Below, piece after piece: positions 9,847-63,136 of a DNA stretch of 64,000 nt (the first letter of the stretch is position 1; each line of letters opens with the position of its first letter). Source of the DNA: Mytilus edulis (lineage: Eukaryota); the NCBI RefSeq assembly GCF_963676685.1, contig NC_092355.1, positions 81,282,001 to 81,346,000 of the forward strand, in the 5' to 3' direction. Position numbers and translations under genes: made by a program. The notes beneath the pieces were generated by a model that worked only from the letters and a program-made list of their open reading frames with translations, ran no database searches and had not been told where the DNA came from.

Positions 9847-12800
9847 ACTGTTCCAGACTTCAGTCTGCAGAGGCTATTCAGCCACCAAAAGCCCTTTTAA
9901 GGGCTACCCAATTTATTCAAAAAGAATCTACAATTGTTGTACATTAGTTATCAAACTAAATCTAGCTGAGCCCTACCCTTTTCTTTACTTTTCTCTGAAC
10001 TTTGCACTGGTCTCTGAAATATTTTTTGGGGTCACATTATTTCCATTGTTTGTTTTATTTCACTCCTTATGACTATACTATTTCTAACACCTAAGTATGC
10101 AGCTGGGTTTTTTTTTTTTTTTTGATATATTTTGTGTAGTTAGGCACCATTAAAGTTATATCAGTGTATTTTCACGCACTTATTTGAACTGAATATAACT
10201 TTTTCTATTCAGTTTTCGTTAGAGTGACAATCTACGAAAATAGGAAGTCATGCTAGGGTTTTATTGTGCTCTTTTTTTTAGGGGGAAGGGGGTCAAAATC
10301 ACACAGCTAACCTTCAACCGAAAAATCATTTTTGTCATTATGTGAGTTTTTCCATTTCTCTCTTCTTCTTCGTATTCAACTTGACTGACATTTTTTGTTG
10401 GACTTTTTCTACACGTAAGCAAAGTCAAAGGTTGGCTCTCTATTTCATATCAACTAGTCAATGGGGAGGTAACTCTAAAATTAAACTCAGTACTTTTTTT
10501 CAGAACTATATAAATAAACTGTTAAAATGTACATAATACAAAAGATGTATAACGTATCGTAAAAATCAGATTAGTAGCAAATGAATGCAGTGACGTTTGT
10601 CTGTTATTTATTTATTTTTTTATTTATTACTTGTCAAAATTACTACAATAATATTGTGTATTAAAAGTTAAAAGGAAACTCTAAAGTATGGAGGTTTTTG
10701 TTCAACCTTTAACAGTTCTGCAATTATTTTGTCATTTTATTACCTGCGATTTATTATGCAAATTTCACTATTCTCTACCTTTCGAATTTCATCTTTGTTT
10801 TACTCGTGTATAAAATAAATGCACCTACTTGTTTCTATGTTTCTTTCAAATGGTTGTCCTGTGTTTTTTCTCTTCTTTTTTCTCTCTGTTATTTAGTGCG
10901 CGACGACTTGACTGTATCTTTGCTATGTCATTTTAATCTTTCCACAGCACGCGAGGTGAATAAACCCGAAACAATACAGTGACGTCACACGTGACTACTG
11001 TGATGAACAGAAACAAGGATGGATGGACGGACAGTGGTACAAAAAGTAAGAAAAAGTTATTTCTCTGATAAAAGGTATCGCGTGAATTGTAGGTTCACGG
11101 TATAGGTTTTTTCTCTCATTTTTGAAGATCATATATACAGTTGTCTATAATTGCTTACATCCACTTCCTTTGAACTATGGTGGATAGTTGTCTCATTGGC
11201 AATCATACCACATCTCCTTATTTTCATATTGAAATGACAGCAACTTAACGACACACACAAACATAGCCTGCTAGTATATACGTACATGGGAGACTGAAAA
11301 ATTCTGTGCTTATTGGTAAATGATAAAAAAAAACATTAAAACTTTAAGGTATGCTATGACTAAGCTTTAAATATAAGGTAGATAGGGAGTAGGAAACACA
11401 CATATTTTTTTTTTTTATTTGGCCTTAATGAAGAAGAAAAGCACACACACAATATATTAGAACTTGTACTAACATCCATTAAACGCTATGCTAATATATG
11501 TCTTTAAAAGAGAACCATTATTTTATTTTAATTTATTTTTTCTTCGTTTCAATCTTGGTTTTTGATTCTTTTTACATTAAATCTGTTTTTACTGTTGCAA
11601 TAGTTTACAAATATTTTTAGTCCAAATACAATTCATTGATAATATATCCCCCCTTTTTTGTCCGGATTTTTTTTTTTTTTTTTTTTTTGAAAAAGGGGGG
11701 GGGGGCTGGAGGTTTAGTTAAATGCAGTGGAAAAATGTTTTGCCCAAAGTCCAATGGTTCACACTGATGTGTTTTTGTCCTTCTGTCTCTTTTTAATCGT
11801 CCGTGTCACGGGATGCTGCTTCACCCTTTACCGGTTCTGGTTTCACTTGCATAGCTTATATAGGTATAATGCATATGTATAGCCAGAGTCTTCACTGTGA
11901 CACACATTCCCCTTTTTGAGGGGAAATAAATAACTTTTGTAATTGTCAATTAAGATACAAATGATATGTACCACTGTCGAATTATAAAACTACAAAAATC
12001 TTCGTGTTTTGTTTTTGTTTTGTTGATTTTTTTTGTTTGTATCGAAACTTTCAGGCGGCCAGGCCACTTTGAGCTCAGATCATCGGTTATTGATAATAAA
12101 ATTAATGAAATATATTTTGTTGAAAAATATGGTATATTCGATAAGACATATTCGAGTTTTTGACTTGAAAGTGCGCAAATTGTACATGCAAATGGAAATA
12201 AAAGCGAAGACGCATCATACAGAACAGTTGTTCAGTGCCTCAGATCCACTGAAAACAAAGTCGCTCTCTGAAAAGTTCCCAACGCTAGATTAAATAAAAA
12301 GATGTTTCAAATTCGTATTCTAGATATTGGGTTTGTTCATTCGACTCTTGAATGTTTGCGAAATTTCGCTCGGGTTGAATAAAAATGTTATTTGAAGTTT
12401 TAGTAAAAATCTGCAATTAAACAATGGCGCGTGAACTTTTTGTGTGTTTCCCTCTAGCTGGAAACAAACTTATTACGAGGAGGAACATGCTTCCAGTGAA
12501 TAAAAACGGAAAGAAACCTAAAGAGAAATGATTTTTCTTCCTCTGTACAATTTTACGACGATAGAATATTTGTGTAATGAGAAAAACTCGTAAATTTTCT
12601 GTCAACATACCTGCGAAGACAATTCAGTCGGTTCTACTTTAACTATTAATATCTTTTTACTGTGTACATCGAAAAATACACAGTTTATCTAACATGCAAG
12701 ATTAATGACTGTTGAGCAATTTGGTATGCTATATGTGAATGTTTTTGATAGAATTATACTATAAATTATCATAAAAGTCTTCGAAGAAGCACATAATCAT

Positions 12801-13799
12801 TTTAAATTCTCCCTCGCCCTGCTCGTCCGAATTTAAAGCATTTAATTTCTAATTCAATAGGCTATAAACAAGACAAACACAGATATAGGATTAGTTGCTC
12901 GCAGTAACATCTTATTTTCTCTTGCGATACAATATTTTATTTTACTGAATTGTACATATTTCTTCAATCGAAACATTATATAAACACATGACATATAACA
13001 TTGTTCCTCTTTCGCATCGTTTCTTTTCCCCCGGCTAATGCCTCCAACGCCTGTACGTACAATAAACATAGCAGCAACTGCACATATACCTATGTGACCA
13101 ACTTCAATCCGACGTAACTGCGAGCACCTTCGATACTAATACATTTAAATCCCAAAGTTTATATAGTACCTTTAAACCCCACCCATAAAAACCGCCAAAA
13201 CTTTCCTCGTGCCTCCTGCACCTAACATCAAACTTATAAATAGTACATACTGTTACAAAACCAGTATCCGAACTAGTTATACTAGTTCCCATCTGTAAAT
13301 ATTAACTACAAATAGCAAACGGGAAAAACCCTATTTCAAACGAAATAAAATACATTTAAATTCTCCCTCGCCCTGCTCGTCCGAATTTAAAGCATTTAAT
13401 TTCTAATTCAATAGGCTATAAACAAGACAAACACAGATATAGGATTAGTTGCTCGCAGTAACATCGAAACAAAGGAAATGAAACAGTTCAGAATAAGATG
13501 CTGATATAAAAAGTCTTTGAGATATTGCTAATTGAAGATAAATCTTCAACCACTAAACTGGACCAATATCAGTTTCAAGTCAATAATCGGAACGTCAAAT
13601 ACGACATATTGAACCGGAAGCTTCCGCAATAGATGGTTATACAGACAAATGTTTTGCAAATCTTGAATCGATGGATAATTTCTCAAACTGTTTTCTTTGA
13701 TTCTGTAAATAGAAGAACACAATCAAAACTTCATACATACATGTACTTGTATCTTAATCAGATAAACATTAAACTCTATAGATATATACATATTTCCTA

Positions 13800-14050
13800 T
13801 CTATATACATCAACTTCTAATCATAGTATGTGATTCTTTATGTTACACACTGCAACATAGCTCATGAAAGTCTAAACATATATGCATCTCAGATCTACAT
13901 ACATCAACTTCTAATCACACTGTGATCCTTTATGTCACACTGCGCAACATAGCTCATGAAAATCTAAACATATATGCATCTCAGATCTACATACATCAAC
14001 TTCATATCACACTGTGTGATCCTATTGTTACATTCATAAAAATCTAAACA
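13800..14050 (+). repeat. ~92-bp tandem repeat (about 2.5-3 degenerate copies) inside the insertion
   Basis: acatcaactt...tgtgat...ctcatgaaa.tctaaacatatatgcatctcagatctacat recurs at ~13807, 13901, 13993. Confidence 0.8.
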
Positions 14051-14472
14051 TATATATATATATATATATCTATTATATCAACAACAACAAAAAACAAAGT
14101 CTACAGCTATGTCTGAAGCTCTGACTTTGTACAAGGTTTCTTATTATCTTTGTTACATTTTTATTATCGATTTTAAATTAAAAAGTTTTCCACTCAATAT
14201 GTTATGTACTCATGTGTACGGACTGTAAAATATTACTGCTTACCGTTTTAAAATCTCTCCAAGTTGAACTCTTGGTACTGTCCGATTTATCTCACATAAA
14301 AACGGGCTACTTTTTATACCTACACCTGCATATTTGTGGCATCCGGGAAATAATTAGCACATACATAAGGTCTCCAATATAGTACTAAAACTCTGATCGT
14401 TTTATAGTAAATGCGACCTGCTGATAAAATAAAATCAAAATTGTGGTATTTAATGAAAAAACATATAAAATT

Positions 14473-15746
14473 GATGATTATTACAATCTCATCTTCAAAT
14501 CAATTGTATACATATATTTAATTATGTACAAAAGTTAATGCCTTCATATTTAATCTTTTGTTTTCTGTATATTAATTTAACTATACAACATCCCATGGTG
14601 CATTGTGCAACCAATCACATCGCTCCCAGCGACAACATTCCATGGTGCACTACACTGTGCAACCAATCACGTCGCAACATTCCATGGTGCACTACACTGT
14701 GCAACCAATCACATCGCTCCCAGCGACAACATTCCATGGTGCACTACACTGTGCAACCAATCACATCGCTCCCAGCGACAATATTCCATGGTGCACTACA
14801 CTGTGCAACCAATCACATCGCTCCCAGCGATCTAATAAAATAAATTTCATACATACCATTTCAAACTCATCTGTAACTCGTATCACTCTTCGTGACAAAA
14901 TCATCTCACTGCGAGAAGATTTAAACATATGTTGTTTCCATGTCTCAAATCTAGTACAAGTCTTACAAATTCTTTACCTGAACTTTGTACTGAAACAGTA
15001 ATCAGATTTTATACAAAAGGTGGACACTGTAATATTTAGTGAGCATTTCATCTATCAACTTTTAAATAAAAGTTGCATGCTTAAAAGCTGATTTGTTTTT
15101 CATATTAATGAACTCAACATGGTTCACATGATGATTATTACAAGTCTCATCTTAAAATCAATTGTATACATATATTTAATAATGTACAAAAAGTTAATGC
15201 CTTCATATTTAATCTTTTGTTTTCTGTATATTAATTAAACTATACAACATCCCATGGTGCATTGTACAACCAATCACATCGCTCCCAGCGACAACATTCC
15301 ATGGTGCACTACACTGTGCAACCAATCACATCGCTCCCAGCGACAACATTCCATGGTGCACTACACTGTGCAACCAATCACATCGCTCCCAGCGACAATA
15401 TTCCATGGTGCACTACACTGTGCAACCAATCACATCGCTCCCAGCGATCTAATAAAATAAATTTCATACATACCATTTCAAACTCATCTGTAACTCGTAT
15501 CACTCTCCGTGACAAAATCATCTCACTGCGAGAAGATTTAAACATATGTTGTTTCCATGTCTCAAATCTAGTACAAGTCTTACAAATTCTTTACCTGAAC
15601 TTTGTACTGAAACAGTAATCAGATTTATACAAAAGGTGGACACTGCAATATTTAGTGAGCATTTCATCTATCAACTTTTAAATAAAAGTTGCATGCTTAA
15701 AAGCTGATTTGTTTTTCATATTAATGAACTCAACATGGTTCACATG
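14473..15746 (+). repeat. ~620-660-bp tandem duplication inside the insertion, each half with a 52-bp minisatellite (5 and 4 copies)
   Basis: Blocks start gatgattattacaa at ~14473 and ~15130. The unit ccatggtgcactacactgtgcaaccaatcacatcgctcccagcgacaacatt is at 14593-14830 and 15252-15447. Confidence 0.92.
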
Positions 15747-16457
15747 GTTCAGTATTGAATGGAAATATATAACCAAATTCTATAGTATTTTAAAATAAAA
15801 TCATAAACCTGTAAAACGGTTTTTTAAAAAACAAGAACACAAATATATTGATTTTCGCTTCTAACTTAATAATTCGTTCCAGGCATGATTTCAGAATGTA
15901 AATAAAGTCAACATTATACTCAACTCCGTCATGTGAAAACATGTTCCTCTTTCGCATCGTTTCTTTTCCCCCGGCTAATGCCTCCAACGCCTGTACGTAC
16001 AATAAACATAGCAGCAACTGCACATATACCTATGTGACCAACTTCAATCCGACGTAACTGCGAGCACCTTCGATACTAATACATTTAAATCCCAAAGTTT
16101 ATATAGTACCTTTAAACCCCACCCATAAAAACCGCCAAAACTTTCCTCGTGCCTCCTGCACCTAACATCAAACTTATAAATAGTACATACTGTTACAAAA
16201 CCAGTATCCGAACTAGTTATACTAGTTCCCATCTGTAAATATTAACTACAAATAGCAAACGGGAAAAACCCTATTTCAAACGAAATAAAATACATTTACC
16301 GAGATCGCGTAATGGATTTTACAAGTTATTTTTAAGGGTGTCTTCGTCGAGGTCCGCGTTCGTCTGTTATAAATAAACGAGGCCTGGAATGGCGTTATTT
16401 TCAAATCGTTATTCGTAGTATAAACTTCGTAAAGGATAATATTTTGAATCATTCAAA

Positions 16458-17033
16458 ATGGCAGACGCAACAGCAGCACCAGCAGTAGCACCAGCTAAAT
16501 CACCAAAGAAAAAGGCAGCAGCCAAGCCAAAGAAGCCTTCCGCACATCCTAAATACAGCGAGATGATTGGAAAAGCCATCGCCGCTTTGAAAGAACGTGG
16601 AGGTTCTTCAAGGCAAGCAATTCTGAAGTACATCATGGCCAACTTCAACGTCGGAAAAGATGCCAAGTCAGTAAATGCTCATTTAAAACTTGCACTCAGA
16701 GCCGGAGTTAAGAACAACAGTTTGAAGCAGTCCAAGGGAACTGGAGCATCCGGATCTTTCAGAATTGGAGAGGCTAAAGTAGTTAAAAAGAAGCCAGCAA
16801 AGGCAAAGAAAGCAGCCAAACCTAAGGCCGCCAAGCCGAAGAAGGCAAAGAGCACACCCAAGAAGAAGAAGCCAGCAGCAAAGAAACCAGCTGGAGAAAA
16901 AAAGGCTGCCAAACCAAAGGCAAAAAAACCAGCAGCAAAGAAAGCAGCCAAGCCAAAGAAGCCAGCAGCCAAGTCACCAGCAAAAAAGAAGGCAGCCAAA
17001 CCAAAAGCCAAGAAGACACCAAAGAAGAAGTAA
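16458..17033 (+). CDS. H1: Histone H1, copy 4 (promoter interrupted by a 3.5-kb insertion)
   Basis: Identical 191-aa ORF; only 159 bp of native upstream sequence remain contiguous. Confidence 0.98.
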   Translation: MADATAAPAVAPAKSPKKKAAAKPKKPSAHPKYSEMIGKAIAALKERGGSSRQAILKYIMANFNVGKDAKSVNAHLKLALRAGVKNNSLKQSKGTGASGSFRIGEAKVVKKKPAKAKKAAKPKAAKPKKAKSTPKKKKPAAKKPAGEKKAAKPKAKKPAAKKAAKPKKPAAKSPAKKKAAKPKAKKTPKKK

Positions 17034-20150: not shown

Positions 20151-20724
20151 ATGGCAGACGCAACAGCAGCACCAGCAGTAGCACCAGCTAAATCACCAAG
20201 AAAAAGGCAGCAGCCAAGCCAAAGAAGCCTTCCGCACATCCTAAATACAGCGAGATGATTGGAAAAGCCATCGCCGCTTTGAAAGAACGTGGAGGTTCTT
20301 CAAGGCAAGCAATTCTGAAGTACATCATGGCCAACTTCAACGTCGGAAAAGATGCCAAGTCAGTAAATGCTCATTTAAAACTTGCACTCAGAGCCGGAGT
20401 TAAGAACAACAGTTTGAAGCAGTCCAAGGGAACTGGAGCATCCGGATCTTTCAGAATTGGAGAGGCTAAAGTAGTTAAAAAGAAGCCAGCAAAGGCAAAG
20501 AAAGCAGCCAAACCTAAGGCCGCCAGCCGAAGAAGGCAAAGAGCACACCCAAGAAGAAGAAGCCAGCAGCAAAGAAACCAGCTGGAGAAAAAAAGGCTGC
20601 CAAACCAAAGGCAAAAAAACCAGCAGCAAAGAAAGCAGCCAAGCCAAAGAAGCCAGCAGCCAAGTCACCAGCAAAAAAGAAGGCAGCCAAACCAAAAGCC
20701 AAGAAGACACCAAAGAAGAAGTAA
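20151..20724 (+). pseudogene. H1: Histone H1, copy 5, frameshifted (two 1-nt deletions; possibly sequencing/assembly error)
   Basis: caccaagaaaaagg (~20198) vs caccaaagaaaaagg, and gccagccg (~20525) vs gccaagccg; 574 bp instead of 576. Confidence 0.8.
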
Positions 20725-23700
20725 ACTGTTCCAGACTTCAGTCTGCAGAGGCTATTCAGCCACCAAAAGCCCTTTTAAGGGCTACCCAATTTATTCAAAA
20801 AGAATCTACAATTGTTGTACATTAGTTATCAAACTAAATCTAGCTGAGCCCTACCCTTTTCTTTACTTTTCTCTGAACTTTGCACTGGTCTCTGAAATAT
20901 TTTTTGGGGTCACATTATTTCCATTGTTTGTTTTATTTCACTCCTTATGACTATACTATTTCTAACACCTAAGTATGCAGCTGGGTTTTTTTTTTTTTTT
21001 TGATATATTTTGTGTAGTTAGGCACCATTAAAGTTATATCAGTGTATTTTCACGCACTTATTTGAACTGAATATAACTTTTTCTATTCAGTTTTCGTTAG
21101 AGTGACAATCTACGAAAATAGGAAGTCATGCTAGGGTTTTATTGTGCTCTTTTTTTTAGGGGGAAGGGGGGTCAAAATCACACAGCTAACCTTCAACCGA
21201 AAAATCATTTTTGTCATTATGTGAGTTTTTCCATTTCTCTCTTCTTCTTCGTATTCAACTTGACTGACATTTTTTGTTGGACTTTTTCTACACGTAAGCA
21301 AAGTCAAAGGTTGGCTCTCTATTTCATATCAACTAGTCAATGGGGAGGTAACTCTAAAATTAAACTCAGTACTTTTTTTCAGAACTATATAAATAAACTG
21401 TTAAAATGTACATAATACAAAAGATGTATAACGTATCGTAAAAATCAGATTAGTAGCAAATGAATGCAGTGACGTTTGTCTGTTATTTATTTATTTTTTT
21501 ATTTATTACTTGTCAAAATTACTACAATAATATTGTGTATTAAAAGTTAAAAGGAAACTCTAAAGTATGGAGGTTTTTGTTCAACCTTTAACAGTTCTGC
21601 AATTATTTTGTCATTTTATTACCTGCGATTTATTATGCAAATTTCACTATTCTCTACCTTTCGAATTTCATCTTTGTTTTACTCGTGTATAAAATAAATG
21701 CACCTACTTGTTTCTATGTTTCTTTCAAATGGTTGTCCTGTGTTTTTTCTCTTCTTTTTTCTCTCTGTTATTTAGTGCGCGACGACTTGACTGTATCTTT
21801 GCTATGTCATTTTAATCTTTCCACAGCACGCGAGGTGAATAAACCCGAAACAATACAGTGACGTCACACGTGACTACTGTGATGAACAGAAACAAGGATG
21901 GATGGACGGACAGTGGTACAAAAAGTAAGAAAAAGTTATTTCTCTGATAAAAGGTATCGCGTGAATTGTAGGTTCACGGTATAGGTTTTTTCTCTCATTT
22001 TTGAAGATCATATATACAGTTGTCTATAATTGCTTACATCCACTTCCTTTGAACTATGGTGGATAGTTGTCTCATTGGCAATCATACCACATCTCCTTAT
22101 TTTCATATTGAAATGACAGCAACTTAACGACACACACAAACATAGCCTGCTAGTATATACGTACATGGGAGACTGAAAAATTCTGTGCTTATTGGTAAAT
22201 GATAAAAAAAAACATTAAAACTTTAAGGTATGCTATGACTAAGCTTTAAATATAAGGTAGATAGGGAGTAGGAAACACACATATTTTTTTTTTTTATTTG
22301 GCCTTAATGAAGAAGAAAAGCACACACACAATATATTAGAACTTGTACTAACATCCATTAAACGCTATGCTAATATATGTCTTTAAAAGAGAACCATTAT
22401 TTTATTTTAATTTATTTTTTCTTCGTTTCAATCTTGGTTTTTGATTCTTTTTACATTAAATCTGTTTTTACTGTTGCAATAGTTTACAAATATTTTTAGT
22501 CCAAATACAATTCATTGATAATATATCCCCCCTTTTTTGTCCGGATTTTTTTTTTTTTTTTTTTTTTGAAAAAGGGGGGGGGGGCTGGAGGTTTAGTTAA
22601 ATGCAGTGGAAAAATGTTTTGCCCAAAGTCCAATGGTTCACACTGATGTGTTTTTGTCCTTCTGTCTCTTTTTAATCGTCCGTGTCACGGGATGCTGCTT
22701 CACCTTTACCGGTTCTGGTTTCACTTGCATAGCTTATATAGGTATAATGCATATGTATAGCCAGAGTCTTCACTGTGACACACATTCCCCTTTTTGAGGG
22801 GAAATAAATAACTTTTGTAATTGTCAATTAAGATACAAATGATATGTACCACTGTCGAATTATAAAACTACAAAAATCTTCGTGTTTTGTTTTTGTTTTG
22901 TTGATTTTTTTTTGTTTGTATCGAAACTTTCAGGCGGCCAGGCCACTTTGAGCTCAGATCATCGGTTATTGATAATAAAATTAATGAAATATATTTTGTT
23001 GAAAAATATGGTATATTCGATAAGACATATTCGAGTTTTTGACTTGAAAGTGCGCAAATTGTACATGCAAATGGAAATAAAAGCGAAGACGCATCATACA
23101 GAACAGTTGTTCAGTGCCTCAGATCCACTGAAAACAAAGTCGCTCTCTGAAAAGTTCCCAACGCTAGATTAAATAAAAAGATGTTTCAAATTCGTATTCT
23201 AGATATTGGGTTTGTTCATTCGACTCTTGAATGTTTGCGAAATTTCGCTCGGGTTGAATAAAAATGTTATTTGAAGTTTTAGTAAAAAATCTGCAATTAA
23301 ACAATGGCGCGTGAACTTTTTGTGTGTTTCCCTCTAGCTGGAAACAAACTTATTACGAGGAGGAACATGCTTCCAGTGAATAAAAACGGAAAGAAACCTA
23401 AAGAGAAATGATTTTTCTTCCTCTGTACAATTTTACGACGATAGAATATTTGTGTAATGAGAAAAACTCGTAAATTTTCTGTCAACATACCTGCGAAGAC
23501 AATTCAGTCGGTTCTACTTTAACTATTAATATCTTTTTACTGTGTACATCGAAAAATACACAGTTTATCTAACATGCAAGATTAATGACTGTTGAGCAAT
23601 TTGGTATGCTATATGTGAATGTTTTTGATAGAATTATACTATAAATTATCATAAAAGTCTTCGAAGAAGCACATAATCATTTTACCGAGATCGCGTAATG

Positions 23701-23843: not shown

Positions 23844-24419
23844 ATGGCAGACGCAACAGCAGCACCAGCAGTAGCACCAGCTAAATCACCAAAGAAAAAG
23901 GCAGCAGCCAAGCCAAAGAAGCCTTCCGCACATCCTAAATACAGCGAGATGATTGGAAAAGCCATCGCCGCTTTGAAAGAACGTGGAGGTTCTTCAAGGC
24001 AAGCAATTCTGAAGTACATCATGGCCAACTTCAACGTCGGAAAAGATGCCAAGTCAGTAAATGCTCATTTAAAACTTGCACTCAGAGCCGGAGTTAAGAA
24101 CAACAGTTTGAAGCAGTCCAAGGGAACTGGAGCATCCGGATCTTTCAGAATTGGAGAGGCTAAAGTAGTTTAAAAGAAGCCAGCAAAGGCAAAGAAAGCA
24201 GCCAAACCTAAGGCCGCCAAGCCGAAGAAGGCAAAGAGCACACCCAAGAAGAAGAAGCCAGCAGCAAAGAAACCAGCTGGAGAAAAAAAGGCTGCCAAAC
24301 CAAAGGCAAAAAAACCAGCAGCAAAGAAAGCAGCCAAGCCAAAGAAGCCAGCAGCCAAGTCACCAGCAAAAAAGAAGGCAGCCAAACCAAAAGCCAAGAA
24401 GACACCAAAGAAGAAGTAA
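23844..24419 (+). pseudogene. H1: Histone H1, copy 6, premature stop after V109 (possibly sequencing/assembly error)
   Basis: gtt TAA aag at 24171-24173 instead of gtt AAA aag; the rest is identical. Confidence 0.8.
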
Positions 24420-26431
24420 ACTGTTCCAGACTTCAGTCTGCAGAGGCTATTCAGCCACCAAAAGCCCTTTTAAGGGCTACCCAATTTATTCAAAAAGAAT
24501 CTACAATTGTTGTACATTAGTTATCAAACTAAATCTAGCTGAGCCCTACCCTTTTCTTTACTTTTCTCTGAACTTTGCACTGGTCTCTGAAATATTTTTT
24601 GGGGTCACATTATTTCCATTGTTTGTTTTATTTCACTCCTTATGACTATACTATTTCTAACACCTAAGTATGCAGCTGGGTTTTTTTTTTTTTTTTGATA
24701 TATTTTGTGTAGTTAGGCACCATTAAAGTTATATCAGTGTATTTTCACGCACTTATTTGAACTGAATATAACTTTTTCTATTCAGTTTTCGTTAGAGTGA
24801 CAATCTACGAAAATAGGAAGTCATGCTAGGGTTTTATTGTGCTCTTTTTTTTAGGGGGAAGGGGGTCAAAATCACACAGCTAACCTTCAACCGAAAAATC
24901 ATTTTTGTCATTATGTGAGTTTTTCCATTTCTCTCTTCTTCTTCGTATTCAACTTGACTGACATTTTTTGTTGGACTTTTTCTACACGTAAGCAAAGTCA
25001 AAGGTTGGCTCTCTATTTCATATCAACTAGTCAATGGGGAGGTAACTCTAAAATTAAACTCAGTACTTTTTTTCAGAACTATATAAATAAACTGTTAAAA
25101 TGTACATAATACAAAAGATGTATAACGTATCGTAAAAATCAGATTAGTAGCAAATGAATGCAGTGACGTTTGTCTGTTATTTATTTATTTTTTTATTTAT
25201 TACTTGTCAAAATTACTACAATAATATTGTGTATTAAAAGTTAAAAGGAAACTCTAAAGTATGGAGGTTTTTGTTCAACCTTTAACAGTTCTGCAATTAT
25301 TTTGTCATTTTATTACCTGCGATTTATTATGCAAATTTCACTATTCTCTACCTTTCGAATTTCATCTTTGTTTTACTCGTGTATAAAATAAATGCACCTA
25401 CTTGTTTCTATGTTTCTTTCAAATGGTTGTCCTGTGTTTTTTCTCTTCTTTTTTCTCTCTGTTATTTAGTGCGCGACGACTTGACTGTATCTTTGCTATG
25501 TCATTTTAATCTTTCCACAGCACGCGAGGTGAATAAACCCGAAACAATACAGTGACGTCACACGTGACTACTGTGATGAACAGAAACAAGGATGGATGGA
25601 CGGACAGTGGTACAAAAAGTAAGAAAAAGTTATTTCTCTGATAAAAGGTATCGCGTGAATTGTAGGTTCACGGTATAGGTTTTTTTCTCTCATTTTTGAA
25701 GATCATATATACAGTTGTCTATAATTGCTTACATCCACTTCCTTTGAACTATGGTGGATAGTTGTCTCATTGGCAATCATACCACATCTCCTTATTTTCA
25801 TATTGAAATGACAGCAACTTAACGACACACACAAACATAGCCTGCTAGTATATACGTACATGGGAGACTGAAAAATTCTGTGCTTATTGGTAAATGATAA
25901 AAAAAAACATTAAAACTTTAAGGTATGCTATGACTAAGCTTTAAATATAAGGTAGATAGGGAGTAGGAAACACACATATTTTTTTTTTTTATTTGGCCTT
26001 AATGAAGAAGAAAAGCACACACACAATATATTAGAACTTGTACTAACATCCATTAAACGCTATGCTAATATATGTCTTTAAAGAGAACCATTATTTTATT
26101 TTAATTTATTTTTTCTTCGTTTCAATCTTGGTTTTTGATTCTTTTTACATTAAATCTGTTTTTACTGTTGCAATAGTTTACAAATATTTTTAGTCCAAAT
26201 ACAATTCATTGATAATATATCCCCCCTTTTTTGTCCGGATTTTTTTTTTTTTTTTTTTTTTGAAAAAGGGGGGGGGGGGCTGGAGGTTTAGTTAAATGCA
26301 GTGGAAAAATGTTTTGCCCAAAGTCCAATGGTTCACACTGATGTGTTTTTGTCCTTCTGTCTCTTTTTAATCGTCCGTGTCACGGGATGCTGCTTCACCC
26401 TTTACCGGTTCTGGTTTCACTTGCATAGCTT

Positions 26432-26531
26432 NNNNNNNNNNNNNNNNNNNNNNNNNNNNNNNNNNNNNNNNNNNNNNNNNNNNNNNNNNNNNNNNNNNNN
26501 NNNNNNNNNNNNNNNNNNNNNNNNNNNNNNN
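26432..26531. other. Assembly gap (100 N) inside the array
   Basis: Run of 100 N; the flanks are out of phase with the 3693-bp period (ATG-to-ATG 4948). Confidence 0.99.
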
Positions 26532-28791
26532 AACCTTTAACAGTTCTGCAATTATTTTGTCATTTTATTACCTGCGATTTATTATGCAAATTTCACTATT
26601 CTCTACCTTTCGAATTTCATCTTTGTTTTACTCGTGTATAAAATAAATGCACCTACTTGTTTCTATGTTTCTTTCAAATGGTTGTCCTGTGTTTTTTCTC
26701 TTCTTTTTTCTCTCTGTTATTTAGTGCGCGACGACTTGACTGTATCTTTGCTATGTCATTTTAATCTTTCCACAGCACGCGAGGTGAATAAACCCGAAAC
26801 AATACAGTGACGTCACACGTGACTACTGTGATGAACAGAAACAAGGATGGATGGACGGACAGTGGTACAAAAAGTAAGAAAAAGTTATTTCTCTGATAAA
26901 AGGTATCGCGTGAATTGTAGGTTCACGGTATAGGTTTTTTCTCTCATTTTTGAAGATCATATATACAGTTGTCTATAATTGCTTACATCCACTTCCTTTG
27001 AACTATGGTGGATAGTTGTCTCATTGGCAATCATACCACATCTCCTTATTTTCATATTGAAATGACAGCAACTTAACGACACACACAAACATAGCCTGCT
27101 AGTATATACGTACATGGGAGACTGAAAAATTCTGTGCTTATTGGTAAATGATAAAAAAAAACATTAAAACTTTAAGGTATGCTATGACTAAGCTTTAAAT
27201 ATAAGGTAGATAGGGAGTAGGAAACACACATATTTTTTTTTTTTATTTGGCCTTAATGAAGAAGAAAAGCACACACACAATATATTAGAACTTGTACTAA
27301 CATCCATTAAACGCTATGCTAATATATGTCTTTAAAAGAGAACCATTATTTTATTTTAATTTATTTTTTCTTCGTTTCAATCTTGGTTTTTGATTCTTTT
27401 TACATTAAATCTGTTTTTACTGTTGCAATAGTTTACAAATATTTTTAGTCCAAATACAATTCATTGATAATATATCCCCCCTTTTTTGTCCGGATTTTTT
27501 TTTTTTTTTTTTTTTTGAAAAAGGGGGGGGGGGCTGGAGGTTTAGTTAAATGCAGTGGAAAAATGTTTTGCCCAAAGTCCAATGGTTCACACTGATGTGT
27601 TTTTGTCCTTCTGTCTCTTTTTAATCGTCCGTGTCACGGGATGCTGCTTCACCCTTTACCGGTTCTGGTTTCACTTGCATAGCTTATATAGGTATAATGC
27701 ATATGTATAGCCAGAGTCTTCACTGTGACACACATTCCCCTTTTTGAGGGGAAATAAATAACTTTTGTAATTGTCAATTAAGATACAAATGATATGTACC
27801 ACTGTCGAATTATAAAACTACAAAAATCTTCGTGTTTTGTTTTTGTTTTGTTGATTTTTTTTGTTTGTATCGAAACTTTCAGGCGGCCAGGCCACTTTGA
27901 GCTCAGATCATCGGTTATTGATAATAAAATTAATGAAATATATTTTGTTGAAAAATATGGTATATTCGATAAGACATATTCGAGTTTTTGACTTGAAAGT
28001 GCGCAAATTGTACATGCAAATGGAAATAAAAGCGAAGACGCATCATACAGAACAGTTGTTCAGTGCCTCAGATCCACTGAAAACAAAGTCGCTCTCTGAA
28101 AAGTTCCCAACGCTAGATTAAATAAAAAGATGTTTCAAATTCGTATTCTAGATATTGGGTTTGTTCATTCGACTCTTGAATGTTTGCGAAATTTCGCTCG
28201 GGTTGAATAAAAATGTTATTTGAAGTTTTAGTAAAAATCTGCAATTAAACAATGGCGCGTGAACTTTTTGTGTGTTTCCCTCTAGCTGGAAACAAACTTA
28301 TTACGAGGAGGAACATGCTTCCAGTGAATAAAAACGGAAAGAAACCTAAAGAGAAATGATTTTTCTTCCTCTGTACAATTTTACGACGATAGAATATTTG
28401 TGTAATGAGAAAAACTCGTAAATTTTCTGTCAACATACCTGCGAAGACAATTCAGTCGGTTCTACTTTAACTATTAATATCTTTTTACTGTGTACATCGA
28501 AAAATACACAGTTTATCTAACATGCAAGATTAATGACTGTTGAGCAATTTGGTATGCTATATGTGAATGTTTTTGATAGAATTATACTATAAATTATCAT
28601 AAAAGTCTTCGAAGAAGCACATAATCATTTTACCGAGATCGCGTAATGGATTTTACAAGTTATTTTTAAGGGTGTCTTCGTCGAGGTCCGCGTTCGTCTG
28701 TTATAAATAAACGAGGCCTGGAATGGCGTTATTTTCAAATCGTTATTCGTAGTATAAACTTCGTAAAGGATAATATTTTGAATCATTCAAA

Positions 28792-46230: not shown

Positions 46231-47610
46231 ATGAATCTGATAGGCTTTTCTTTTCAGTATAAAATTAATGAAAACTACAGGCCAGTCTCATTGACATCAG
46301 TACCATGTAAACTTCTTGAGCACATCATATGCCGTCATATACTCAAACATCTGGAAAAGCATAATGTATTAACATCACTAAACCACGGCTTTAGATCTGG
46401 ATATTCCTGTGAGACCCAACTTGCCATTACAATCCATGATATGCTACAATCCTACGATAAAGGAAACCAAGTAGATATTGCGATTCTGGATTTTTCAAAA
46501 GCGTTCGACACAGTACCTCATGATAGACTCTTGCACAAAATAGACCAATATGGAATTAGAGGAAATATCCACAAATGGCTAACTTCATTCCTAACCGAAA
46601 GAAAAATGCGAGTACAACTTGATGGAGAAAACTCGAGCAATGCTTCAGTTGAATCCGGAGTCCCCCAAGGAACGGTACTAGGACCCATCCTCTTCCTGTG
46701 TCATATAAATGATCTCCCAGATGCAGTAAACTCATCAGTACGACTATTTGCAGACGACTGTTTGCTCTACCGGGAAATCAAAAACCAAAATGACCATAAC
46801 AAACTACAAGAGGATCTCAAATCACTAGAAAAATGGACCGACGACTGGGGTATGCGCTTCAACGCCAAAAAATGTTATATGCTCAGCCTGAAAAGTAAAA
46901 GTCAGCGTTTTTACAACCTTAACAACCACACGCTTGAACAAGTGTCATCCAACCCATACCTAGGACTACAAATACAAGAAGATCTTAAATGGGAAGAACA
47001 AATAACAAATACGTGTAACAAAGCCAGTTCTACCCTAGGCTTCCTTAGAAGGAACCTACAACACTGTCCTATGGAATGCCGTAAAACTGCATATATAGCT
47101 CTCATACGATCAATAATGGAGTATGGATCAATTATTTGGGACCCATATACCCAAAAAGACATCGACAAACTAGAATCCATACAAAAGAGAGGTGCTAGAT
47201 TCATTACCAAAGACTACAAATCAAGAGAGGAAGGATGTATGACAAAAATGCTAAAAGAACTTCAGCTCCCGTCATTACAATCAAGACGCCAACAACAACG
47301 ACTGATCTTCTTTTTCAAAGTGGTTGAGGGGAAGATACCAGCGCTTCCTCCCGACGATTTAATCCAATTTCATAGACCAAAGAGACAAATCAAAGCAACA
47401 ACATATAATAACTTTGTAACAAAAAACATTATAGACCACCAAGTCCGTAACAACAAACGTGCGGTCATAGTTCCAACTAGTAAGACAGAACAGTACAAGA
47501 ACTCTATTTTTGTGCGCACTGCAATAAACTGGAACCATCTGGAAGACTCAGTAGTGTGCGCCACTACTGCCGAGGAGTTTAAATCAGCACTCCTCAGCAA
47601 GCGCGACTAA
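46231..47610 (+). CDS. Reverse transcriptase, C-terminal part of ORF2 of a 5'-truncated CR1/L2-group non-LTR retrotransposon (homology starts ~46270)
   Basis: NYRPVSLTS, HGFRSGYSCETQL, LDFSKAFDTVPH, SGVPQGTVLGP, LFADD, W.MRFNAKKC, YLG and EY...WDP motifs; endonuclease missing; no stops. Confidence 0.93.
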   Translation: MNLIGFSFQYKINENYRPVSLTSVPCKLLEHIICRHILKHLEKHNVLTSLNHGFRSGYSCETQLAITIHDMLQSYDKGNQVDIAILDFSKAFDTVPHDRLLHKIDQYGIRGNIHKWLTSFLTERKMRVQLDGENSSNASVESGVPQGTVLGPILFLCHINDLPDAVNSSVRLFADDCLLYREIKNQNDHNKLQEDLKSLEKWTDDWGMRFNAKKCYMLSLKSKSQRFYNLNNHTLEQVSSNPYLGLQIQEDLKWEEQITNTCNKASSTLGFLRRNLQHCPMECRKTAYIALIRSIMEYGSIIWDPYTQKDIDKLESIQKRGARFITKDYKSREEGCMTKMLKELQLPSLQSRRQQQRLIFFFKVVEGKIPALPPDDLIQFHRPKRQIKATTYNNFVTKNIIDHQVRNNKRAVIVPTSKTEQYKNSIFVRTAINWNHLEDSVVCATTAEEFKSALLSKRD

Positions 47611-61781: not shown

Positions 61782-63136
61782 GTTTTGATGAAAATAGAGA
61801 AGAAAATGTAAAGAAAAAGAAACAATCCTTAAGGTGTGATTATGGTGGATGTGGAAAAGTGTTTACCTTGAATAAATACTTAAAAAGACACTTATTAATA
61901 CATTGTGGAGACAAGCCCTTCGTGTGTGACATGTGTAATAAAAGTTTCACAGTCAAAAGATATCTCAAAAGGCACATGTTAACACACACAGATGATAAGA
62001 GTTACAAGTGTGAAGTGTGTGATAAAAGGTTTAGTAATAAGGACAGTTTAAGACCTCACATGAAGATGCATACTGGTGATAGAGATCACATATGTTATGT
62101 ATGTGGTCAAGGGTTTTATCAGAAACGATATATGTTGAAACACTTTAATCGTACACATACTGGAAATACAACTCAGTGTGACGTGTGTAGTTTGTGGATT
62201 AGGAATGATAGAGTTCAGAAACACACAGAAAATCACCTATGTAAAAATCAGTCCCCTGGGAAACTCAACCTTTCTAGAACTGCATTTGGAAGACCTGTCA
62301 AGTCGAGTTCTTCTAAAGGAGAACAATTGCATGGGAAACAAAATCTTTCTGGATCTGCATTTGGAAGACTTGTCAACTCGAGAACTCCAGAAGGAAAGCA
62401 GTCTGCATCTTCTACAAACATTGAGATCAAGAAGAAGTATTATCAGAATAAATCGGCGTCGAATCCATCTAGTGCGAAAAGTATTTCTTCATTGTCAACA
62501 GGCAGTATAACTGTTGAGAACTTTGATCAAAGTAGTATCAATCTAGATGTCAATGTCACTCGACCAATCGATTCAGGTGTTGCTATTTCAGACATTCCTT
62601 TTACCTCAGACCAGGCTCATCCCTTAAAAATTACTACATCGAAAACCTTAAACACAGTTGCAAAAAATGTCAACTTTGAAGAGGCTGCCGTGATAGCTGT
62701 TAATAAATCTGATACTGAAATGGATATAGAGTCGCAGGAGGCAGTGGAGAACTTGGAGGAGTCTTCTATGAAAGATGTCAACAAATCTGATACTGAAATG
62801 GATATAGAGTCGCAGGAGGCAGTGGAGAACTTGGAGGAGTCTTCTATGATGGGTGTCAACAAATCTGAGACTGAAATGGATTCAGAGTCGAAAGAGGCAG
62901 TTGAGGTATTAGAAAGTCTTTTTGGAGTTTCACACACAGATATTTCTGATTCAGACGTTAACGACTTAGCTGCTGCATCTGGTGATAATAATTCACCTCC
63001 TGAAACAGGAAAATCTGTGGCGTCCATTAAGATAGAACCAGAGTTAGAAACCAGTTATTCAGACGAAGAACATCCACTCTCATGCAGAAAAGATGAAGAT
63101 TTGTCAAGTAAGTTATTTTGTTTAAACACGTCTTGA
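61782..63136 (+). CDS. C2H2 zinc-finger gene, exon with 5 C2H2 fingers and acidic repeats (may end at donor 63107/63108 and continue outside the window)
   Basis: ttactag acceptor in phase with the previous exon. Fingers: CDYGGC..H..H, CDMC, CEVC, CYVC, CDVC, with TGEKP-like linkers. Three 26-aa VNKSDTEMDIESQEAVENLEESSM repeats. Confidence 0.9.

Follow-up and report, generated by a model that had tools for sequence, protein, structure and literature searches.

The 64-kb window analysed in our study (the whole stretch of DNA, 64,000 nucleotides) was found to contain a non-autonomous PAT-like retrotransposon of 3,494 bp inserted into a tandem array of histone H1 units. The element is opened and joined to its host at one point, T|TTA, and, judged from the junctions of 98 copies, the TTA acts as part of a putative recombinase-binding arm adjoining the cut rather than as a homology core. 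By structure the element belongs to a known group; our results suggest that the palindromic target, the one-sidedness of the crossover and the predicted fold of the junction are apparently new for PAT elements. No PAT target logo or palindrome, one-sided crossover or junction hairpin was found in the literature covered; subscription papers (including Goodwin and Poulter, 2004, and the kangaroo paper) and Repbase lay outside that scope and may describe parts of these.

The insertion and its relatives

The window opened with tandem units of 3,693 bp that each contain a histone H1 gene; the H1 ORF of another unit matched Pfam Linker_histone. The insertion was present in one of the 11 units bearing the site, 162 bp upstream of the H1 ORF start, and the remaining 10 were empty. 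The contigs of all other runs (4/4) also carried the empty unit, against which the alignment skipped 3,494 bases with four letters fitting either side. The initial annotation had reported four junction strings, and all of them were recovered: the left one at 12795, the internal one at 13348-13364, the right one at 16289 and the empty site elsewhere. The features of the locus are as follows.

1716, 5409, 9102, 19982, 23675, 28623, 32318, 36012, 39703 and 43240: empty site in 10 H1 units
12792..12801, no strand: host DNA to the left of the cut (target positions -10 to -7 and the six-base spacer)
12802..16295, minus strand: whole element, 3,494 bp, non-autonomous, PAT-like (self-comparison; boundaries from 98 copies; 3,494-base skip)
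12802..12911, minus strand: B2 repeat, 3' end of the element (111/111 bases the same as B1, shared T included)
12997..13355, minus strand: A2 repeat (99.7% identical to A1)
13342..13403, minus strand: internal junction with predicted hairpin (crossover point between 13355 and 13356)
13356..13465, minus strand: B1 repeat (self-comparison)
13526..13717, minus strand: remnants of a tyrosine recombinase ORF (tblastn with the L064 protein, E 3e-10)
14081..15930, minus strand: remnants of an RT/RNaseH ORF, interrupted by tandem arrays and an internal duplication
15938..16295, minus strand: A1 repeat, 5' end of the element (self-comparison)
16296..16299, no strand: host DNA to the right of the cut, TTAC (right target arm)
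16458..17033, plus strand: histone H1 ORF of the interrupted unit

Two H1 units had shifted frames and a third was partial, with a spacing of 1,255 (20255-20950, 23844-24173, 25277-26831); either errors of assembly or decay of the copies may account for these. Two small contigs (L031, L032) repeated the 10-kb locus of the window, including the insertion, with no substitutions and 8-9 gaps, and may be alternative assemblies or a spread within the H1 array, both of which would fit. Beyond the H1 array, the window contained a reverse-transcriptase frame (46231-47610) and a C2H2 zinc-finger frame (61859-63136).

On the element strand, self-comparison gave the order A1, decayed ORFs, B1, A2, gap and B2, which is that of split direct repeats; only direct repeats were found, and the inverted terminal repeats and long internal complementary region of DIRS1-like elements were absent. 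The remnants of the RT/RNaseH frame contained 52-bp tandem arrays at 14604-14830 and 15263-15447 and an internal duplication of roughly 620-650 bp, and 92-bp tandem arrays were also present in this copy. Both A repeats contained about 60 bp of gag-derived DNA (12994-13080 and 15943-16020). The gag segment adjoins A1 only after an internal deletion, so that A1 was apparently the template from which A2 was recopied. Of the 98 copies, 54 were solo B-gap-A units of about 558 bp, and the internal junction was absent in 13 (various loci from L072 to L158). The ratio of these two classes agrees with recombination of A repeats with each other and of B repeats with each other, or the solo units may have arisen by direct insertion of a small circle.

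A search of the genome with the element gave 41 matches from the best 40 scored of 659 candidates, and most of the approximately 40 loci compared (39-40) had the same B-A-B-internal-A layout. Three open frames were found on the element strand in L063 and L064. Those of L064 matched zf-CCHC, RVT_1 with RNase H and a Dam-like domain, and Phage_integrase (Pfam), so that RT/RNaseH and tyrosine recombinase lie on the same strand with the recombinase downstream. The window copy was 74-90% identical to L064 in pieces and held the three frames as remnants only; with the Phage_integrase match of L064 and the recombinase remnants of this copy, the earlier attribution to a tyrosine-recombinase element was borne out. 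The Pfam Dam match after RNase H was found in L064 (E 3e-5, 24.2 bits), L200 (2e-6, 28.0 bits) and L220 (3e-4, 20.8 bits), all just under the curated cut-off of 28.1 bits. The zf-CCHC match in Gag was under the cut-off in L064 (19.1 bits) and over it in L200 (21.5 bits), and the Pfam search found none in L220. The Pat1-like group is defined in PMC4157794 by split repeats, a methyltransferase and a Gag zinc knuckle, unlike Ngaro. Membership of Ngaro was rejected in view of the Dam-like matches in the relatives. By structure, the element is thus probably PAT-like, order DIRS; the recombinase tree covered the recombinases of this genome. A PDB search with the recombinase gave nothing meaningful.

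The many dispersed copies of the subfamily were 95-99% alike, and because of this likeness it is likely that the non-coding subfamily of the window copy has moved recently by using the proteins of a helper. The long ORFs of three loci (L043, L047, L051) were considered as helpers and rejected; they lie in other elements, which have long RT frames, are nested within copies of the present one and are LINE-like where an endonuclease was found (L047 and L051). One copy (L061) was itself nested, in the opposite orientation, within a related recombinase retrotransposon. At least 150 related recombinase matches were found genome-wide, many with open frames and in several young families, and the genome is unusually rich in PAT-like elements.

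The crossover point and the target

The 121 rows examined gave 98 distinct copies with both ends, after the removal of 5 duplicates, 14 rows in which an end could not be located, 3 in which the A end was not intact and 1 that was rearranged. At the B end, the first letter was that of the host (T 44, A 23, G 19, C 12), followed in 91/98 copies by the TTA of the element. At the A end, the first letter was the T of the element in 96/98 and the next three were those of the host. The host triplet matched TTA in 30/98 copies, where 4.1 were expected, and had one mismatch in 37, two in 24 and three in 7. The TTA was found on the left only in 64 copies and on the right only in 3. The base before the cut was T in 43-44/98 copies, against about 34 (33.6) expected (p 0.055). 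The enrichment of the triplet and the near-chance frequency of the first T indicate that TTA is a real preference and that the first T is close to chance.

Fifteen copies had an empty paralogous site among the sequences compared, and in 9 of them the empty site exactly matched the left letter followed by the right three letters; 7 of these 9 were other than TTTA, and such sites read GTTA, CTTG, TCTC, GAAG, TCAA and GTTC. Of the others, 4 had a gap of four letters, which were diverged or mixed, and 2 had a gap of three; a duplication was found in none. At mismatched sites the one-point crossover rests on paralogous, not orthologous, empty sites. From the junction tally and the empty paralogs together, the element therefore spans exactly 12802-16295 and was opened at the single point T|TTA. 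The internal junction is, as had been noted, the junction that a circle would have. The absence of a target-site duplication was also confirmed, as duplication lengths in the 98 copies were equal to those of the shuffled control and the empty paralogs had none.

The initial annotation had proposed TTTA as the constant recombination core of the family, with the crossover taking place within it. The latter was exact at this locus, where the plus strand of the window contains 684 TTTA sequences and the four-letter match is thus partly luck; as a rule of the family it failed, since the mismatches fell almost only on the A side, and TTTA was present at both junctions in only 11/98 copies. The family does not target H1 units, one of which made up 1 of the 98 distinct sites. 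The 13-letter junction motif recurring inside A was found, as reported, at 13138-13150 and 16078-16090, and it was conserved in the coding relatives. As a second crossover site it was rejected, with no break at its T|TTA in 174 A hits (one locus, L123, had an unrelated insertion a few bases left of the motif, and another, L151, had a deletion); the motif may be an accessory recombinase-binding site.

The host letters right of the cut, at +1 to +4, were biased to T55, T62, A71 and A47 among the 98 copies, and those left of it, at -10 to -7, to T48/A39, T62, A60/C23 and A47, with a weaker bias at -2. The target is thus a loosely palindromic sequence, WTMW-N6-|WTMW, with the cut at the right-hand end of the central six bases. 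The mirror image of the +1 to +4 profile was best at -10 to -7 (0.58 vs -1.11 +/- 0.17), and the bias persisted in 45 copies that were not chosen via W-anchored patterns. The logo and the mirror scan gave two inverted arms around a 6-bp central region with the cut at its edge; they were weaker in one of the further families (F3) described below. At the window's own site, -10 to -7 is a poor match to the left arm of the family. A 4-base staggered cut centred on TTAA was rejected, with no mirror signal at +11 to +14.

The spacer of the target was identical to that of the element in 0/98 copies. If both strands were exchanged over such an unmatched spacer, about half of the copies would be expected to have the element's spacer at the B end; it was found at the left junction in 1/115, and 56/57 right ends kept their own spacer when the six letters were left free in the search pattern. 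The single odd right end had the same left flank as L126, was altered or truncated, and had no element spacer on the left. Coupling sequences of the Tn916 type give two product classes. Such classes were not seen here, the odd right end included.

The search for recombinases, in which the best 150 of 1,385 candidates were scored and 40 loci compared, gave five further families whose recombinases were 41-48% identical to that of L064 and whose junctions were again one-sided. In four of these families the joined ends read ATAA-N6-|TTAT, and ATAA was present at -10 to -7 in 8/51 of their targets (p 6e-7). The left target arm was weak in F3, in which ATAA was found in only 2/33 targets and -8 alone stood out (p 0.006); a T before the cut was present in 8/33, i.e., there was no identity preference. 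In F5 the arm of the element was TTCT, yet the targets contained A at +3 in 10/11 and C in 0/11. The letters after the cut are therefore likely to be read by protein rather than by base pairing.

A reciprocal crossover between circle and target in a shared TTTA/TTA homology core, with the recombinase exchanging both strands, is the standing model for DIRS1-like elements, in which the crossover takes place in an identical 3-bp sequence of junction and target (PMC3266345). It fits this one locus exactly, and the enrichment of TTA in the targets agrees with it. However, 68/98 targets mismatched TTA, the letter beside the cut was the least conserved of the three, heteroduplex would give both classes of mismatch instead of the one-sided ratio of 64 to 3, and the F5 targets followed A, not the element's C. 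Its strict form is already contradicted by the 98-copy tally, the empty paralogs and F5, and we consider the model the least likely of all the readings. A blunt insertion is also very unlikely. Here the same bond would be cut on both strands, or the end of a linear cDNA joined, at flexible A/T sites whose TA steps are spaced by ten bases, and the apparent palindrome would be a preference for DNA bending. The single crossover point with neither loss nor gain agrees with this, as does the -10 to -7 profile, which also resembles +1 to +4 as a direct repeat one helical turn away. Tyrosine recombinases, as described in PMC5357621, cut staggered around a central region, and a blunt insertion gives no reason for the compensated hairpin at the junction.

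The predicted junction hairpin and the proposed route of integration

Folding of the internal junction predicted an outer stem, in which 13342-13351 pairs with 13394-13403, and an inner stem, in which 13355-13363 pairs with 13383-13391 and which closes a loop of 19 nt. Beside the cut, a small bubble was predicted that has one more base on the cut strand. Among 16 junctions, the inner stem kept 123/128 pairs and the outer stem 123/160; when the partners were swapped among families, the values fell to 105 and 94, respectively. The observed value of either stem was reached in 0/20,000 swaps, counts that are not independent events because the families are related. Alternative registers of the outer stem gave 48-68 pairs, and at least 7/8 inner pairs were present in 15/16 junctions. 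The exception was F5, with 6/8 inner pairs and no outer stem, the junctions of which were still one-sided. In an alignment of 10 rows, 8/19 pairs changed on both sides, and 88% of the cells paired, against 34-53% for slid partners; when the test was confined to pairs with a two-sided change, the observed value was reached by 47/500 shuffles. The two-sided changes were spread over several branches of the tree of this genome's recombinases. The folding energies were modest (z about -2 for the window junction), and the sense strand folded more stably in 11/11 junctions. As the outer stem needs the end of A beside the start of B, it can form in two settings only, the internal junction and a joined intermediate. 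As predicted by folding, the junction can form a two-stem hairpin with a bubble at the cut, which appears to be kept by compensation across the families and which the recombinase may use.

Read from the end products, integration would be a single strand exchange on folded single-stranded cDNA, finished by host replication, and we hold this somewhat probable. The helper-encoded recombinase would bind the two stems of the folded junction and the two short arms of the double-stranded target. It would then cut the sense strand of the element beside the bubble, together with the matching strand of the target, and the resulting pseudo-Holliday junction would be resolved by host replication or a host resolvase. 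That the sense strand would be the one cut, provided the enzyme stays on the TTA arm, follows from the recombinase chemistry described in PMC5357621. Single-stranded cDNA is reported for DIRS-1 (PMC7192593), and integration by a single exchange for the CTX and VGJ phages (PMC3442271, PMC5357621). Several points stand against the folded strand. Identity at the base beside the cut, which integrons need, was weak here and absent in F3. Both the geometry and the folding energy point to the sense strand in this family, whereas the DIRS-1 cDNA that accumulates is the antisense strand, according to PMC7192593. F5 was one-sided despite its weak fold, and the left arm was weak in F3 and poor at the window site.

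The end products fit a single-stranded and a double-stranded donor alike. From a double-stranded circle, one strand pair would be exchanged at the edge of arm and spacer, the unmatched spacer would block the second exchange, and host replication or resolvase would finish the reaction. The hairpin would then serve an earlier step, for example by splinting the cDNA ends so that the circle can close, like an internal complementary region in miniature, or by acting as a primer of reverse transcription; for DIRS-1, a hairpin at the 3' end has been put forward as such a primer (PMC7192593). The one-sided products are explained equally well in this way, VGJ phage is described as integrating so from double-stranded DNA (PMC3442271, PMC5357621), the circle junction of the four families is a perfect ATAA-N6-TTAT palindrome as a double strand, and the one-sided junctions of F5 with their weak hairpin suit such a circle. 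On the other hand, the circle alone leaves unexplained the one-base-asymmetric bubble beside the cut and the stem over each arm, and double-stranded circle junctions of DIRS-1 could not be amplified, as stated in PMC7192593. We consider the double-stranded circle the main rival of the folded strand, though less probable than not.

The integration of tyrosine-recombinase retrotransposons has so far been a model without biochemical test, and the specificity of the recombinase had not been investigated experimentally according to PMC7192593. Our analysis supplies the exact cut point, a logo of 98 target sites, a predicted reactive strand and a predicted folded substrate of 62 bases with natural compensatory variants, so that oligonucleotides and a single purified protein would suffice to test the folded-strand route. 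If this route is true, it would mean a eukaryotic integrase that acts on single-stranded DNA, leaves no scar and does not depend on homology. More broadly, we tentatively propose, as something possible but short of probable, that retrotransposons with split direct repeats are the eukaryotic counterparts of integron cassettes, in which folded single-stranded cDNA undergoes one exchange with a loose double-stranded palindrome and needs no homology. On this view the hairpin would correspond, in miniature, to the internal complementary region of DIRS1, integration from single strands would hold for all of the DIRS order, and the textbook scheme of a double-stranded circle with a 3-bp core would be incorrect.

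Comparison with known systems

PAT elements contain the same A1-B1-A2-B2 split direct repeats and, as here, make no target duplication (PMC4157794). They are described with a Gag zinc knuckle, RT/RNaseH, a methyltransferase-like domain and a recombinase on one strand, as in the relatives of our element; the difference is that the window copy belongs to a recently spread non-coding subfamily. Ngaro elements share the repeat layout and the isolated solo AB repeats (PMC9210276, PMC8547959), and are described as being without the methyltransferase domain, which the relatives here carry weakly. DIRS1-like elements are likewise integrated by a recombinase at the junction of the two ends without duplication (PMC3266345, PMC7192593), and they resemble the present element in having an internal sequence complementary to both ends. 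They differ in their inverted terminal repeats and in the long, perfect form of the internal complementary region as described, and the identical 3-bp target needed by their model is not needed by our family (TTA in 30/98). In Table 3 of PMC3266345, several DIRS1-like elements have a starting triplet that agrees with the circle junction and an ending triplet that does not; this may be one-sidedness of the kind seen here.

The Xer/dif system of CTX and VGJ has two arms around a 6-bp central region, as in the targets here (PMC3442271, PMC5357621), and uses an exchange of a single strand pair finished by replication, as proposed here. The folded single-stranded attP of CTX is like the proposed substrate (PMC3442271). 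These phages differ, as described, in using host recombinases and one specific 28-bp target and in requiring base pairing beside the cut; the homology of the central region was not matched here (0/98 spacers). Integron attC/attG recombination includes a folded single-stranded site cut beside a central bubble, which resembles the site proposed in our study (PMC2811028; bioRxiv 10.1101/2022.09.11.507474). The two T nucleotides after the cut (T2T3) are set by protein and not by homology in integrons (PMC2811028), a likeness to this family, and the genomic target is short and degenerate in both, GWT in integrons (bioRxiv 10.1101/2022.09.11.507474) and N|WTMW here. In integrons the base before the cut must be identical (PMC2811028), whereas this family has no such need, and integron cassettes are described as bacterial DNA cassettes that are not reverse-transcribed, whereas the element here is a retrotransposon.
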